IMG/VR virus record: IMGVR_UViG_2695420814_000010
DNA length: 50,942 bases
Source of the DNA: a virus
Taxonomy: Duplodnaviria > Heunggongvirae > Uroviricota > Caudoviricetes
Strand: one strand, 5' to 3'
Part shown: positions 25,698-49,390 of the stretch, one piece after another
Position numbering within the stretch: position 1 is the first letter of the stretch
Layout of the letters: each line of letters opens with the position of its first letter
Notes under the pieces: model-generated
The model's database searches: none
What the model was told of the DNA's origin: nothing
Seen by the model: only the letters and a program-made list of their open reading frames with translations
Translations under genes and position numbers: made by a program

Positions 25698-26285
25698 TTT
25701 TCCTCACATATGTCATATAGTAAAGGATTATATATACCGTTGTTTTGGACGCTCAAACAGCGAATCAGATCAAATAAAACGCACATTTGTTAACATTTAC
25801 ACAAAGTCTGCGTGGGATATTCTGAAAGAATATCCATAATGTGGAGAGAATCTATTGAAGTGCATGGTGCCGGGTGCCTCCCGGTGAACAAAATGTTCGT
25901 GATACCTGTCGGCGACAGAAAAGGTTAATGGTATCACCCCACCGCACAGGGGGATTCACCATGCAGGAGTTTTCTTAGCAAACTCACTGCGCGCCCGGCA
26001 ACTCCCAACCACATAAAATGCGGAGTTTGTGGCATTTATGCATATAACTCGCAGGAATTATCTTAAAAAACTGATGTCGATCCGGATTAAAAAGAAGCAG
26101 GTCATCATCAGATGACTGGAAAAAAGGAAAACAAAAAATACTCATCATACAGTTTTGATTGCAGGGATGAGCCTGCTATGCACAATATGCAGAATATAAG
26201 CAAGATAAAAATATGCAGGCATATTATTTCGGATCTTGTTATTAACACAACCTTTTTAATAATCATTTGGCATACAATAAACCAG

Positions 26286-26316: not shown

Positions 26317-26632
26317 TCAATACAAAGGATGCTTCGTCTTTATTATAGTAATCTGAGGCGTCGGGTGTCTTGTATCAGACAACATATTGTCCCGCTAAAC
26401 AGCGAATTACAAACCACCCTGCAATGATCTCTCATCTCATTTTATATGAGTTGACGACATCAGGATAACGCATCATCAGCCCCTGCCAAGAAATATCAAA
26501 ACTCCCGCCAGCAATGTGTTATCACAATATTGTAAAAAAAACACAGCACCGAAACTATAACTGGTCTCTGTTATAATTTGGAGCAGAAAGACCAGTTGCC
26601 CAACTAGCAGCATTCTCCCCTGCTTTCCTGAC

Positions 26633-26663
26633 GTAAAAAAACCGCATTAAGCGGTTTTTTTAC
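26633..26663 (-). terminator. tR'-like bidirectional terminator about 80 nt downstream of Q
   Basis: AAAAAAACCGC-TTAAT-GCGGTTTTTTT: A-run and T-run flank the hairpin, so it can terminate on either strand. Confidence 0.6.
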
Positions 26664-26741
26664 GATGTCCATGTCTGCAATCCGCCTCGCGATACAGCTT
26701 TGCGAAGCATAGCAAAATTGAAGCAGTTTATACGTAAGAAA

Positions 26742-27571: not shown

Positions 27572-28170
27572 TACGCAAACTCCAGTAGTTGTGCGGCCAC
27601 ATTTTCAACTTCCTCCTGAGAGGAGAATTTACGGAACAGAATCCAGTTCCACAGCACATTCAGTACAGATTTATAAACCTGCTGAAACTCGACTTCGTCC
27701 ATATTCGCAAAAGCGATGGATTTTGCCCGACGCCCACGGCTACCGTCCGGATAAATATGCTCGGTGTAAAATCCGGCCTGAATGGTTACCCACTCGCGGA
27801 AAGCCTCAAACGACTTTAGCAACGCCGTATCCCGGGTTCTACGAGTCGCAACGGTGTTAAGGTATTGCTCTGCGGCATCACTCAGGGCTGGCGTGTGTTC
27901 CCGACCAACTGATTCGCACAGGTAATCAACGAAACCAGACAGCAGTTCTCGTTCGCGAGGCGTGATCGCCCCACCGACCGGAGTCCAGTAATCGAATCCC
28001 AGTTGCAGGAGTTTGAAAAAACGCTTGTGGAATGCGTAGTTACGCACACGCTTAAAGTCTGCGTGTATCCACTCACCTATTTTGATTTGATGCAGAAAAT
28101 CGCAACTCTCCGGCGTCGCCGGGAGAAGTAAACCAGAAGAGGTTTGTTTGACCAGTTGTATATGCGCCAT
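27571..28170 (-). CDS. Conserved nin-region phage protein (DUF1367-like, tentative)
   Basis: 199-aa ORF starting MAHIQLVKQTSSGLLLPATPESCDF; an IS-truncated paralogous copy lies at 34869..35184. Confidence 0.5.
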   Translation of the reverse strand: MAHIQLVKQTSSGLLLPATPESCDFLHQIKIGEWIHADFKRVRNYAFHKRFFKLLQLGFDYWTPVGGAITPRERELLSGFVDYLCESVGREHTPALSDAAEQYLNTVATRRTRDTALLKSFEAFREWVTIQAGFYTEHIYPDGSRGRRAKSIAFANMDEVEFQQVYKSVLNVLWNWILFRKFSSQEEVENVAAQLLEFA

Positions 28171-28450
28171 TTCTCAATCTCTCGATGGCGCAGCGCAGCA
28201 GATGCCAGTTGTTCAGGCTGACGAATAAAGTATAAATAAACTGGCTATGGTGTAAAGCCCCACATAGCATGAACAAACACTACATATCAAATAGCTGGTA
28301 CAAGGATAGAAATACGACACTTATTATTAAAAACGATTAGATAAATTACATTTTAATGTTATGCAAAAGTTCTTTTTTATCATAACATTTCAATAAAAGC
28401 ATTACAGATGCAATCATCCCGTCATCATCAATTATTTAAGGTGGTTAAAC

Positions 28451-28537
28451 ATGGAAAATAACAAGTTCGCACATCTCGCTCCTTTTTTATCCGTAATCCT
28501 TTTCGCTTGTTGTTTTATATGGGCATTATTTTTATAA
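28451..28537 (+). CDS. Candidate small hydrophobic peptide (28 aa)
   Basis: AAGGTGG Shine-Dalgarno 7 nt before ATG; MENNKFAHLAPFLSVILFACCFIWALFL has one predicted TM segment. Not in the ORF track (under 60 aa). Confidence 0.25.
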   Translation: MENNKFAHLAPFLSVILFACCFIWALFL

Positions 28538-28943
28538 AGTAGCCACATGATAAGTTGCTGGAATCATATTTCCCACTCAAGTCATTAACATTTGATAAGA
28601 TATATCTAAAAGGACGCCTTTACATTATTTATGCGTATATAATTTATTTATATACACAGTAAAGGTATCCTGGGAAAATATTTATCGTTAAAAAATACAT
28701 CATAAATAATTAAGCTGAAATTTCAGAACACAACTAATACACACAATAAGGTTCAGTAACAGTAATCTATGTGGACTACATCGAGATTTTTTGATTAAAC
28801 TTTAATAACTTATTCCTAACACACAGAATGCATAAACTAAAAGTAAAACAAATAGTTATACGAAAAACAACCATATTTATTCTATCTTCTCCTCTAATCA
28901 ACATATCAATTATGTGTTTCATAACAGCTTGACATAACCCTCC

Positions 28944-28970
28944 AAAAGATGCATTTTTAATGCATGTTTT
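28944..28970 (+). promoter_or_regulatory. NsrR-type inverted-repeat operator in the yeaR-like promoter region
   Basis: AAAAGATGCATT-ttt-AATGCATGTTTT between a TTGACA -35 hexamer (28929..28934) and the GGAGGAGG Shine-Dalgarno; resembles the recalled NsrR consensus AAGATGCATTT-N-AAATGCATCTT. Confidence 0.4.
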
Positions 28971-28983
28971 GGAGGAGGTGGTT

Positions 28984-29322
28984 ATGACACACAAGAGAAT
29001 TCCTAAAGATTGGGTAATCAAACGCTCAACTCCGTTCTTCACAAAAGAGAACGTACCTTCAGCGTTATTAACACATCATAATACAGCAGCAGGTGTTTTT
29101 GGGCAGTTGTGCGTAATGGAAGGCACTGTAACATATTATGGTTTTACTGATGAGAATGCTACTGAACCGGAGATAAAAGTAGTCATTAATGCTGGCGCTT
29201 TTGCAACAAGCCCACCACAATACTGGCACCGTGTTGAACTAAGCGATGATGCTCAGTTTAATATTAACTTTTGGGTCGCTCCAGACTTTTCGGGCGAAAA
29301 AGTCTATAGCACCAAAAAATAG
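28984..29322 (+). CDS. YeaR-like DUF1971 (TehB N-terminal-domain-like cupin) protein
   Basis: Start MTHKRIPKDW after GGAGGAGG; KRSTPFFTKENVPSALL...GTVTYYGF.DE..EPE...INAGAFATSPPQYWHRVE..DDAQFNINFWVAP follows the recalled E. coli YeaR pattern. Confidence 0.65.
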   Translation: MTHKRIPKDWVIKRSTPFFTKENVPSALLTHHNTAAGVFGQLCVMEGTVTYYGFTDENATEPEIKVVINAGAFATSPPQYWHRVELSDDAQFNINFWVAPDFSGEKVYSTKK

Positions 29323-29942
29323 ATGATCATATTAAAAATGCTTTAACAGTCAGACCCGGCAGGGCTATCCCCGACGGGTCTCATTTTTGTAAATATATTG
29401 GTTCTACATTGACAGGAGACTTCAACCATAAGAAGTAATCTGAATACTTGAGCAATAAATTTACTTAAGATTAATGAGCGCACCTTGCCGGACAAAGATA
29501 AACCAAGGTAACACCTTTTTTCTAGCCAGTATGTAATCAATCAGAAAGCCGCTCCATAAGAACAACAGCAAGACAATAAATTGCCATTACAGCCGCAATA
29601 GCCAGCGCACATTTGAGAACCAGCACGACAACCCCCTGTATTAGACGCACACCAGTCCTGATAAATATGAGGCTGTCTCGTCAGTGATTCAATACAACTA
29701 TTGGGTATAGTTTCTGTGATTTTATTCTGTAGAAATGGAACACAACAACCAGTCACCACCAGCACTTCCTTAAATGCTCTAAGTCAGAAACAAGCCAACA
29801 TTTTAGTCCGCTTTGAGCGATCTGCAGACATTGCTAGCAGCCTTCTGTGTGAATTCTCAGGGAGCAGGTCGGCATAGCATCACGTTGAGGCTCTTACCCT
29901 ACTTGTTCACACCAACCCTAACTCCACAGACTGATTCATAAA

Positions 29943-30944
29943 TTAGTAATCTGCGTGTTTCGCACTTTTCAGAAATGCTTTCATATTTTCATTAGGTCGC
30001 TCAATTTCGAAGTTACTTCCATATAACTCTTGTAATTTTGGCCATAACTTACTTAATAACCCTCTCCTGCGATAAAATGGATGTATCCAAACGGTAGATA
30101 GGTACGGAGAATTTGCATTTGAATTGTTTATTGTGACCAGCCCAACTAAACATTGTCGATAACCACTATTATCCATTGATTGTATTTCTTCGACGAATGG
30201 ATACGCGATTACATCAGTCCAACCATGATCGGTTGTATCCCATTGCATTCCGTCATGACATTCCTTCGACTGATAGCGGCGTAAAGCTACACACGCGAGC
30301 TTTTGCCAATCTGGAGAATTAATTGTGATCTCTTCATCGTATGACGCGCCTATTGGAGCGGGTATTGGTCTGATTAATCCAGCATGGCATTCATCATAGA
30401 ACTTCATGTTTCCCTCAGAAACGTTGTGTACGTTGGGTTGCTCCATGTGTGCGCCATTCAAAAATAGCTCTGATAGTAGTGTATCTACACTGTAATCTTT
30501 ATTGATTATTGTCGGCTTAGAGTTTTTCTTATTAAGGCCGCGAGTAACGATTTTTTGATCAATGTTAACAACATGGAATAATCCGTCGGGGAGGCTAGCG
30601 AACCACGATGGGGCATCGGACCAGAATAGCATGCCTTTTGTACTTCTTAAGAGTTTAATTAAGTTAATACAAGCTTCTTCACTAGTCTTGCCGTTGATGC
30701 GAAGTATGTTAGGACTAAAGTAATATTCATCCATATCAGGGAATGCAGCTTCGCAAAACTCCTGTACATAATTTAGCACCTGGATTCTACAGAGATCATC
30801 ATAGCTGGTAATAACTAAGGGGGTATCTTCATTACTATTATGATTATCAATAATGCAATCTATAGCGAGACTTACTGCTTTGCGTATCACTTCAGTTGAA
30901 TCTAACGACTCTAAAAATTTTGTCTTTCGTGTGCGAATATCCAT
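29943..30944 (-). CDS. Hypothetical protein, gene 2 of a two-gene cassette; C-terminal GNAT-acetyltransferase-like motif
   Basis: 333-aa ORF 15 nt downstream of gene 1; C-terminal STVWIHPFYRRRGLLSKLWPKLQELYG resembles GNAT motif A; N-terminal ~230 aa has no recognisable motif. AT-rich codon usage. Confidence 0.55.
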   Translation of the reverse strand: MDIRTRKTKFLESLDSTEVIRKAVSLAIDCIIDNHNSNEDTPLVITSYDDLCRIQVLNYVQEFCEAAFPDMDEYYFSPNILRINGKTSEEACINLIKLLRSTKGMLFWSDAPSWFASLPDGLFHVVNIDQKIVTRGLNKKNSKPTIINKDYSVDTLLSELFLNGAHMEQPNVHNVSEGNMKFYDECHAGLIRPIPAPIGASYDEEITINSPDWQKLACVALRRYQSKECHDGMQWDTTDHGWTDVIAYPFVEEIQSMDNSGYRQCLVGLVTINNSNANSPYLSTVWIHPFYRRRGLLSKLWPKLQELYGSNFEIERPNENMKAFLKSAKHADY

Positions 30945-30959
30945 GTATGACCTGCGCTA

Positions 30960-31922
30960 TTAAAATTCATGAATGAACGGTTTGTCATCTGGTTGCAAAA
31001 TGGTGGTTTTATTCGTTGCTACATTTAAACTGTTGTAGAGCATAATTGCCAGGTTCGATGCATTTTCAATCAGCGTTTCAAGATCCTGGTCTGTAATCAC
31101 TACGAGGTTCCCTTCTTTATCCTTTCCACCACGATGCACTAAGTGATTTCGATTGAGGGTTGCCAATTCAATAGCTTCTATCGGACAGTCTTTTTGTACT
31201 TTTATATCGAATGTAGCTTCATAGCGGTCGATTACCTTTTTAGTGCTATGCCAGCTTGCACTGATCAAGTGTTCCTTGATTGACCTGATTAGCTCTCCCC
31301 TAATTTTCTCGATGGGTTCACCCTTGAAAGGCAACGCAGCAATATCTTTGCTTACTTTAAATTCAGTCTTACCTTTTTCTATACAATTGGCTATGTAGAC
31401 ATCATCTTTCTCTATAGAATTAATGAATAGCTCAACATAAAGCGTTTCCAAAGCTGTAATAACATTCGTGTAGAGCAAACTAAGCAAGTGGTTTTTTTGC
31501 TGTTGTTCAGTTTTATCTTTTGCAAGTTTTTTTATTTTATCGATATTATCAATGAATTTTAAATACGGATTACCGGAAGACGTTACAGCGTCGTAGATAT
31601 CATCATCGTACCAATCATCTATATTATTTGAGTTTCCAGACCAGTCAAAACATTGTGTTTGTAATTCATCTACTAATTCCTCAATATACTCAGATTTAAC
31701 ATATTGACCGAAGATGGATTGTAGTTCTTCGCTCGCATCATACGGCCCGCCATATATGTAAGCATAGCCACCTTCTCTACTTTCATACGGACAAGCATTT
31801 GCCGGATCTTCAAAGTTTTCAAAGAACCAGTTTTTCATTACTTCGAGTTGATCTTTTTTGCTTATGTATTTTAAAGATTTTAGTGGAACTTTCTTTCCAT
31901 TAACCTCGAAAACAATTTTCAC
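30960..31922 (-). CDS. Hypothetical protein, gene 1 of a two-gene cassette; possible HEPN-like R-x4-H motif
   Basis: Track ORF 30960..32051; preferred start is GTG at 31922 (MKIVFEVNGKK...) after AAGGGAG and downstream of an extended -10 promoter. C-terminal NRNHLVHRGG fits R-N-x3-H. About 320 aa, AT-rich. Confidence 0.55.
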   Translation of the reverse strand: MKIVFEVNGKKVPLKSLKYISKKDQLEVMKNWFFENFEDPANACPYESREGGYAYIYGGPYDASEELQSIFGQYVKSEYIEELVDELQTQCFDWSGNSNNIDDWYDDDIYDAVTSSGNPYLKFIDNIDKIKKLAKDKTEQQQKNHLLSLLYTNVITALETLYVELFINSIEKDDVYIANCIEKGKTEFKVSKDIAALPFKGEPIEKIRGELIRSIKEHLISASWHSTKKVIDRYEATFDIKVQKDCPIEAIELATLNRNHLVHRGGKDKEGNLVVITDQDLETLIENASNLAIMLYNSLNVATNKTTILQPDDKPFIHEF

Positions 31923-31955
31923 GATGTAACGCTCCCTTGTATCAATTGCGCAACT

Positions 31956-31964
31956 ATTATACCA
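31956..31964 (-). promoter_or_regulatory. Extended -10 promoter element (TGGTATAAT) upstream of the two-gene cassette
   Basis: Minus strand TGgTATAAT, about 30 nt upstream of the GTG start; a TTGACA hexamer lies further upstream near 32076..32081. Confidence 0.4.
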
Positions 31965-32120
31965 CAGCGAAATACAGGGCATAACCTGCCTCCTTAAACT
32001 AACATACCATGAGCCAGCAATGTCCGCTATTGGCACAAAGCGGACAACCACGCTAGCTCTCCCCTGTGCCAGAAAAATGTCAATTTACATATGAACTAAT
32101 GCTCTTTGATCTAGTAACGT

Positions 32121-33738: not shown

Positions 33739-33739
33739 N

Positions 33740-35759: not shown

Positions 35760-35915
35760 TTACTTCCTGGATTCGTAGTCTACGAAGACAGCGACCTCCG
35801 TCTGGCCGGTTCGGATTCGTACCTCACAGAGGTCTTTCCTCGTTACCAGTGCCGTCACTATGACGGTTAAACAGATGACGATCAGGGCGATTAACATCGC
35901 CTTTTGCTGCTTCAT
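35760..35915 (-). CDS. hok: Hok/Gef family type I toxin
   Basis: MKQQKAMLIALIVICLTVIVTALVTRKDLCEVRIRTGQTEVAVFVDYESRK (51 aa) after AAGGAG; an in-frame upstream extension (to 35972) may correspond to a mok-like leader. Confidence 0.8.
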   Translation of the reverse strand: MKQQKAMLIALIVICLTVIVTALVTRKDLCEVRIRTGQTEVAVFVDYESRK

Positions 35916-36142
35916 AGCCTGCTTCTCCTTGCCTTTCGGCATGTAAGAGGCTAACCTACATGTGCAAAGCATGAAATTGGCCTCAGATTAATGTTAAGCG
36001 TCTTGCCGGACGCGTAATGTTAACTGGGGCTTTTCTCTATCTGCCTTTTGGTGTTCATGCCTGAAGCAGATAGCCTCAAGCACCCGCAGTCATTCTACTT
36101 ACCTCGCCAATATGAAATCAATCAGAAAGGTGCCCCATAAAA

Positions 36143-40511: not shown

Positions 40512-40548
40512 NNNNNNNNNNNNNNNNNNNNNNNNNNNNNNNNNNNNN
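40512..40548. other. Run of 37 N (assembly gap) immediately after the IS right end
   Basis: Literal n characters in the sequence. Confidence 1.
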
Positions 40549-49201: not shown

Positions 49202-49390
49202 ATGTATAAAATTACCGCCACTATTGAAAAGGAAGGTGGCACTCCTACTAACTGGACAAGATATTCAAAATCTAAACTAACGAAATCAGAATGCGAAAAA
49301 ATGCTCTCAGGTAAAAAAGAAGCAGGCGTTTCCAGAGAGCAGAAAGTAAAACTGATAAATTTTAATTGCGAGAAACTTCAGTCCTCGTGA
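49202..49390 (+). CDS. ydaC: YdaC-like small protein
   Basis: MYKITATIEKEGGTPTNWTRYSKSKLTKSECEKMLSGKKEAGVSREQKVKLINFNCEKLQSS (62 aa), internal start of track ORF 49130..49390. Confidence 0.5.
   Translation: MYKITATIEKEGGTPTNWTRYSKSKLTKSECEKMLSGKKEAGVSREQKVKLINFNCEKLQSS

Follow-up and report, generated by a model that had tools for sequence, protein, structure and literature searches.

A DUF1971 gene with an NsrR-type operator carried as cargo by Rac-type and related lambdoid prophages of Escherichia coli

Main Finding

Analysis of IMG/VR virus record IMGVR_UViG_2695420814_000010 (50,942 nucleotides; the whole stretch is referred to here as the window) identified a gene of the DUF1971 family, encoding a protein of 112 amino acids, which is preceded by an operator of the NsrR type and followed by a terminator-like hairpin. 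The promoter, NsrR operator, ribosome-binding site, DUF1971 gene and terminator are interpreted as a self-contained moron cassette of Rac-type and related lambdoid Escherichia coli prophages, which would be induced by nitric oxide (NO) through the NsrR protein of the host and would add to nitrosative-stress tolerance. We put the probability of this reading at about 0.72. The binding of NsrR, the induction by NO and the benefit to the host are what we infer from the sequence.

In the proposed mechanism, the cassette would be transcribed against the phage early operon. In the lysogen, the host [4Fe-4S] repressor NsrR would bind an 11-1-11 operator lying over the -10 element and the transcription start site, and the promoter would be shut. 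Nitric oxide would damage the cluster, NsrR would leave the operator, and the DUF1971 protein would then be made without phage induction and independently of the phage cycle. The protein would add to the tolerance of nitrosative stress, by analogy with Salmonella STM1808, for which such a role is reported, so that the temperate phage probably gives its host an extra NO-inducible stress gene.

The DUF1971 Gene and Its Protein Family

The DUF1971 gene lies on the plus strand at positions 28984..29322 and every neighbouring gene lies on the minus strand, as the sequence-only reading of this DNA had described; the start of the coding sequence was refined to 28984. The assignment was made by Pfam PF09313 and by alignment, and the RefSeq protein WP_000149055.1 is placed at the same coordinates. 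The PF09313 (DUF1971) profile matched at 92 bits against a cut-off of 23.1 (E = 2.3e-26), over model positions 1-80 of 80. A longer reading of 120 amino acids from the ATG at 28960, the longest open reading frame (ORF), was rejected, since it would start inside the operator and all orthologues, as well as the RefSeq entry, begin at the equivalent of 28984. The ribosome-binding site, GGAGGAGG, was read from the plus strand at 28971-28978, 5 nucleotides upstream of the ATG, in agreement with the strong site noted earlier, and positions 28976-28986 are nearly invariant among 41 aligned loci. Across the same loci the diversity of the coding sequence is low (pi 0.019), with 11 variable codons that are synonymous only versus 6 that change the amino acid. 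The ORF was intact in all eight of the sequences translated, with few amino-acid differences and with all family-invariant residues retained. The G+C content of the gene is 39% versus approximately 50% in the flanking nin genes, and the upstream spacer is AT-rich (26-35% G+C).

The protein belongs to the STM1808/3DL3 subgroup of DUF1971, a cupin-like family, as judged from sequence comparison. Among sequences of the Protein Data Bank (PDB), 3DL3 ('TehB' of Aliivibrio fischeri) scored 201 bits with approximately 80% identity over residues 1-111, 3BB6 (E. coli YeaR) scored 89 bits with approximately 38% identity, and 3M70 (the TehB N-terminal domain) scored 46 bits. Because the structure of 3DL3 has been solved and the identity is approximately 80%, the fold can be taken as known. 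Identity between the window protein and 12 proteins of 12 genera was 73-80%, and the 13-sequence alignment that includes the window protein contains 57 invariant columns, among them H31, H32, C43, E46 and H82. His32 and His82, which are present in both the window protein and STM1808, are presumably zinc-binding residues. A large protein search delimited a tight orthologous group (73-82% identity) in Salmonella, Klebsiella, Raoultella, Kluyvera, Vibrio, Aliivibrio, Photobacterium and Shewanella.

The earlier description of the protein as DUF1971/YeaR-like was correct as to DUF1971 membership; YeaR is not the closest relative, and 'yeaR-like' holds at the family level only. The comparison with chromosomal YeaR gave the weaker score listed above, well below that to 3DL3, and YeaR orthology was rejected on these grounds. 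Membership in a yeaR-yoaG group was likewise rejected: the gene is followed by a terminator and then by a gene of opposite orientation, with neither yoaG nor a NarL site present. TehB, the S-adenosylmethionine-dependent tellurite methyltransferase, was rejected with a score of 49 bits against an NCBIfam equivalog cut-off of 303, the match being confined to the N-terminal DUF1971 part.

NsrR-Type Operator and Putative Promoter

The operator, AAGATGCATTT-T-TAATGCATGTT, occupies 28946..28968. It was scored with a symmetrised position weight matrix (PWM) built from 26 NsrR sites of E. coli CFT073 (Table 4 of Mehta et al. 2015, PMC5320621), none of them from this gene. The window site reached 27.25 bits. 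Of the known sites scored, only that of ytfE was higher (30.5 bits, a training site), with hcp at 24.6, yeaR at 22.9 and hmp at 19.5; validated NsrR sites span 12 to 30.5 bits. No other site in the window exceeded 12.9 bits, and 5 Mb of random sequence yielded a maximum of 19.8 bits, so that the resemblance to an NsrR operator, first noticed by eye, was upheld by the matrix scan. The site also matches the motif gATGyAT-N5-ATrCATc of Rodionov 2005 except at the final base. Homologues of tehB were predicted in that study to be members of the NsrR regulon in enterobacteria, and a single 11-bp half-site is able to bind NsrR according to published evidence cited in PMC5320621. The published chromatin immunoprecipitation sequencing site list for NsrR in strain CFT073 contains no site for this gene (PMC5320621).

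The operator is the core of a longer inverted repeat. A 12-3-12 repeat had been described here; the repeat is indeed present, and its real length is 17-3-17 with one mismatch, spanning 28939..28975 with arms at 28939-28955 and 28959-28975. The arms thus reach 7 bp beyond the operator on each side, and the right arm includes the GGAGG of the ribosome-binding site. No other repeat as strong was found in the 50.9-kb window, and repeats with 14-nucleotide arms occurred in none of 10 Markov-random windows. The only other strong inverted repeat of the window, at 26631-26665, has 14-nucleotide arms without a mismatch; it lies just downstream of the Q antiterminator gene (minus strand) and may belong to the late-promoter or terminator region.

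A candidate -35 element, TTGACA, was read at 28929..28934 on the plus strand and is invariant in the 41 related loci. The candidate -10 element, CATTTT, follows at 28952..28957 on the same strand, 17 nucleotides after the -35 and within the left operator half-site. These elements constitute a putative promoter of the DUF1971 gene, predicted from the layout conserved at orthologues. Transcription would start at about 28964, inside the operator, a position that we infer from the -35/-10 arrangement conserved in enterobacterial promoters. The operator would therefore overlap both the -10 and the start site, the same architecture as in orthologues. Coverage of the start site by an operator is the usual mode of repressor block. 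At the DUF1971 gene, the best match to a NarL 7-2-7 site has 4 mismatches and no FNR site was found.

Downstream of the gene, a hairpin with a T-run resembling an intrinsic terminator occupies 29352..29389 on the plus strand, with a stem at 29352-29358 and 29375-29381, an inner GGG/CCC and a T-run at 29384-29388. Its folding energy is -17.7 kcal/mol (z = -2.5), which bears out the terminator-like hairpin previously placed at about 29347..29380. One allele (L085) carries a compensatory G-C to A-T change within the inner stem, and two alleles with other downstream sequence (L002 and L086) have a different GC-rich hairpin at the same place.

Conservation of the Operator before Orthologues

To cover orthologues, 80 loci, one per species, were taken, and the 200 bp before the gene were scanned with the NsrR matrix. 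Sites of at least 20 bits were present in 51 of the 80, centred 27-39 bp before the ATG and overlapping the candidate -10; elsewhere in those 8-kb loci nothing exceeded 14 bits. Nearly all enterobacterial loci carry the site (20-29.5 bits, at -27 to -39), the exception being one Leclercia locus with 11.9 bits, and the site of the window is centred at -27. Chromosomal orthologues in Kluyvera, Leclercia, Citrobacter, Salmonella, Klebsiella and Raoultella have high-scoring sites at the corresponding upstream position. In orthologues a -35-like hexamer (TTTACA, TTGACG or TTGCCT) precedes the operator by 11 nucleotides, the same spacing as for TTGACA in the window. The orthologous -10 is found at the matching position as TATTTT in Kluyvera, TATATT in Citrobacter and CATATT in Klebsiella, and the enterobacterial -10 lies inside the left half-site, 17-18 nucleotides after the -35. 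In sequence layout the prophage cassette most resembles the Kluyvera/Leclercia type, which has a short leader and a ribosome-binding site right after the operator.

Two further observations were made on these upstream regions. In one group of chromosomal orthologues (L004-L025; Kluyvera, Leclercia, Buttiauxella, Pantoea and Enterobacter), a Fur-box-like sequence with 13-17 of 19 matches to GATAATGATAATCATTATC lies at -85 to -67 from the ATG, just before the -35. The element is absent from the Citrobacter, Klebsiella and Salmonella loci, and the match in the prophage copy does not rise above background (11 of 19). This pattern suggests a dual Fur/NsrR control in one clade of chromosomal orthologues. 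In six orthologues of Citrobacter and Yokenella (L026, L029, L032, L047, L049 and L060), the NsrR site lies in a palindrome, at about -60 to -18 from the ATG, with arms that reach 8-11 bp past the operator core on both sides and do not include the ribosome-binding site; the arm variants covary (gcatTtat/ataAatgc, gcatCtat/ataGatgc and gcaCctat/atagGtgc).

Comparison with Known Systems

The orthologue in Salmonella is located after fadR-nhaB-dsbB, which we take to be the position of STM1808 on the LT2 map. The Salmonella enterica STM1808 protein is approximately 79% identical to the window protein (113 versus 112 amino acids). Both STM1808 and the prophage gene form single-gene units in which an NsrR 11-1-11 site covers the predicted -10 and closely precedes the ribosome-binding site. 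However, STM1808 is a fixed chromosomal gene downstream of dsbB, whereas the window gene is cargo of a temperate lambdoid phage in an AT-rich moron region; the operator centre is at -39 from the ATG rather than -27; and only the window operator sits in a longer palindrome reaching the ribosome-binding site. STM1808 is listed in PMC7527575, which cites Karlinsey et al. 2012, as 'putative cytoplasmic protein; NsrR regulon', and a virulence role is ascribed to it there.

The closest structure, PDB 3DL3, represents the 'tellurite resistance protein B' of Aliivibrio fischeri ES114 and is a DUF1971 protein, as is the window protein. Unlike the window gene, the Aliivibrio genes are not directly preceded by an NsrR site, and the structure carries no assigned function. 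E. coli yeaR is repressed by NsrR and induced by NO and nitrate (PMC5320621; Lin et al. 2007), and it is co-transcribed with yoaG and activated by NarL (Lin et al. 2007). The window gene shares the Pfam domain with YeaR, and NsrR control, predicted for the window gene, is the other point of likeness. In contrast, it has no yoaG, no NarL 7-2-7 site and no FNR site, and its operator is stronger (27.3 versus 22.9 bits).

Phage morons and lysogenic-conversion genes under host regulators are exemplified by lambda bor/lom and Gifsy-2 sodCI. The window gene is like these in its atypical base composition and its location at a cargo hot spot, and in an independent promoter and terminator and expression in the lysogen, as predicted here. 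No description of NsrR control of any prophage gene, or of the prophage DUF1971 copy, was found in the literature searched. The cassette is thus known in kind, both as an NsrR-regulated DUF1971 gene and as a phage moron, and is apparently undescribed as a prophage copy. The proposal of a NO-responsive lysogenic-conversion gene, made when the locus was first read, gains support from the conserved operator position at orthologues and from STM1808; NsrR binding, NO induction and lysogen benefit keep the standing of predictions.

Operator Polymorphism and Alternative Explanations

Thirteen operator alleles were observed among 43 loci from E. coli and IMG/VR. Polymorphism at the locus peaks in the palindrome at 28939-28975: across the 41 aligned loci, 16 of its 37 sites segregate (pi 0.14), as against 39 of 245 sites in the non-coding DNA upstream (pi 0.042; Fisher p = 5e-4). 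Almost no variation was seen in the -35, in the right half-site or from the ribosome-binding site to the ATG. Variants of the left half-site include AAGATG, AAGGTG, AACACG and AAGGAG, and the alleles score between 17.5 and 27.8 bits. The window allele has the second-highest score (27.3 bits), after locus L110 (27.8 bits), and its sequence type is shared by 26 of 458 carrier genomes (99% identity band).

Several of these and other observations weigh against the reading of an NsrR-controlled cassette. The commonest of the 43 alleles, AACACGCATTT..., scores 19.9 bits and another 17.5 bits, the left half-site being polymorphic, and tight repression may thus not be selected everywhere. A simple sigma-70 consensus scan called no promoter on the plus strand, because the -10 CATTTT is weak, with only 3 of 6 consensus positions. 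The AT-rich upstream DNA could be silenced by H-NS. Furthermore, most Vibrionaceae and Shewanella loci among the 80 have no site at this position, and the link between the family and NsrR is therefore lineage-specific.

The likeliest alternative, itself of low probability, is that the palindrome is chiefly a nucleic-acid structure. Transcripts entering from upstream would fold over 28930-28989 and bury the ribosome-binding site and the AUG, only internally started, NsrR-controlled mRNAs would be translated, and both layers would act together. The extent of the repeat is in keeping with this. Besides the arms that pass the 23-bp operator by 7 bp on each side, an outer quasi-palindrome spans 28930..28989, in which TGACATAACC (28930-28939, over the -35) pairs with GGTTATGACA (28980-28989, over the ATG) at 90% complementarity, and the -35, operator, ribosome-binding site and start codon all fall within this one hairpin-capable element. 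The RNA fold of 28936-28990 has an energy of -23.7 kcal/mol (z = -5.9), or -26.1 kcal/mol with the outer arms, with the ribosome-binding site and AUG buried; all nine prophage alleles folded gave -14 to -30 kcal/mol with the ribosome-binding site paired. Compensatory allelic changes were found at 28943/28971, at 28940/28974 (with an intermediate allele) and at 28948/28966, partly outside the NsrR core, and the Citrobacter and Yokenella flanks are complementary at 8-11 of 12 positions, with covarying variants. No plus-strand terminator was found between 28538 and the gene, and a small ORF at 28451-28537, described below, is a possible source of read-through.

However, the covariation is statistically modest: the observed score was equalled or exceeded in 16 of 500 shuffles, and two-sided changes are limited to 3 pairs. 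Alleles C, D and E lose the outer pairs in this register, the Citrobacter palindrome excludes the ribosome-binding site, most Kluyvera and Klebsiella orthologues have no extension, and no upstream plus-strand promoter was identified by the scan. Quasi-palindromes are also mutation hot spots for template switching that perfects their arms, and such mutation would yield compensatory-looking changes and high diversity without function. That the 60-bp quasi-palindrome has been kept by compensatory evolution as a two-layer switch, in which NsrR would block the internal promoter and an RNA hairpin of about -26 kcal/mol would stop translation of incoming transcripts, leaving only NO-induced, internally started mRNAs to be read, we regard as doubtful. 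If it were true, the operator alleles (17.5-27.8 bits) would tune leakiness across lysogens.

It is unlikely that the cassette is a decaying or silent passenger with a drifting operator, silenced by H-NS or expressed at a low constitutive level, and of no benefit to the lysogen. The excess polymorphism of the operator region, the fall of allele scores to 17.5 bits, the weak -10 and the 26-35% G+C of the upstream spacer would all fit such a state. The coding sequence argues otherwise, with its intact ORFs, its family-invariant residues and its surplus of synonymous-only codons, as does the near-invariance of the -35, of the right half-site and of the sequence running from the ribosome-binding site to the ATG. 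The weakest common allele, at 19.9 bits, is at the level of the hmp site (19.5 bits), and the evidence cited in PMC5320621 would allow binding at one 11-bp half-site. The cassette also persists in 8% of complete E. coli genomes, beside many different cargo sets. Finally, although palindromic operators are common in lambdoid phages, it is highly improbable that the palindrome serves a phage repressor or an Rrf2-family protein such as IscR and resembles an NsrR site by coincidence, given an NsrR-specific score far outside the random range, the same motif before non-phage chromosomal orthologues in many genera, and the absence from the prophage of the second palindrome copy expected for a multi-operator phage repressor.

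Prophage Setting and Distribution

The window is a Rac-type lambdoid E. coli prophage with intR, recET, RalA, sieB and Q. An 801-bp stretch around the gene is 100% identical to strain LD39-1, where it is flanked by the DUF1367-ybcO-Q genes on one side and by cargo genes on the other; sieB, kilR, recET, ralR, xisR, intR and ttcA are found farther on. Of 5426 complete E. coli genomes, 457 (approximately 8%) contain the coding sequence, always with at least 95% identity, and a sensitive search of the 5426 genomes found no more distant chromosomal copy. Thus, E. coli has the gene only as a phage cassette. Relatives are encoded in only 3 of 50,697 phage records, all of them E. coli phages that carry the gene itself (vB_EcoS-666R9 and two kin), which points to its mobility.

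The left neighbourhood is constant, consisting of an AT-rich spacer and then DUF1367-ybcO-Q. The right neighbourhood varies and comprises MFS/GGCT/LysR genes, QueH, hok with KilA-N, an S8 peptidase with an FtsH-like protein, or, in the window, genes for proteins of 333 and 363 amino acids. From the opposite strand, the terminator of its own, the 39% G+C and the constant left and variable right neighbours, the DUF1971 cassette, with its predicted promoter, is a moron at a cargo hot spot. The opposite strand and the separate terminator likewise agree with the antisense layout described in the sequence-only reading.

Since E. coli is without a chromosomal STM1808-type gene, approximately 8% of sequenced strains gain one solely via a phage cassette that appears pre-wired to NsrR. 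If the NsrR-controlled cassette is the correct reading, temperate phages spread a host-regulated nitrosative-stress function, which would be relevant to survival in the inflamed gut, the urinary tract and macrophages. The operator alleles offer a natural series for the study of how NsrR affinity is tuned, and a dispensable mobile copy is a convenient genetic handle on the biochemical role of DUF1971 proteins.

Other Features of the Window

The two cargo genes to the right of the cassette are both on the minus strand, at 29943-30944 (333 amino acids) and 30960-32051 (363 amino acids), with only sub-threshold matches, to a GNAT acetyltransferase and to a HEPN/RES N-terminal domain 1. Neither they nor the DUF1971 gene had a PADLOC defence hit, and PHROGs lists all three as 'unknown function'. 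The pair may be an uncharacterised toxin or defence pair.

To the left, an unannotated hydrophobic ORF of 28 amino acids, MENNKFAHLAPFLSVILFACCFIWALFL, was found on the plus strand at 28451-28537 with the ribosome-binding site AAGGTGG. All 43 related loci retain an intact copy, and 3 protein variants occur among them. Phage vB_EcoS-683R6, which does not have the DUF1971 gene, carries a 68%-identical copy at the same place, and homology with this phage stops exactly at the stop codon of the 28-amino-acid ORF (28538), the left boundary of the cargo hot spot. The ORF may encode a small membrane protein or a type I toxin. Farther left, the best promoter-like match of the region, TTTACA-16-TATACT (10 of 12), is on the minus strand at 28229-28256, just upstream of the start of the DUF1367 gene (28170), and may be an internal promoter for the nin/Q genes.

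A mir-616 match from an Rfam scan of 28100-30000 (E = 0.12) was rejected as a chance hairpin match; nothing else was found in that scan. Masked or unresolved bases appear as runs of N at 33739 (1 base) and 40512-40548 (37 bases) of the window. Rfam matches on the minus strand that exceeded the gathering score were the RalA antitoxin small RNA (49208-49386), the sok antitoxin RNA (35910-36085) and STnc100 (25808-25994).

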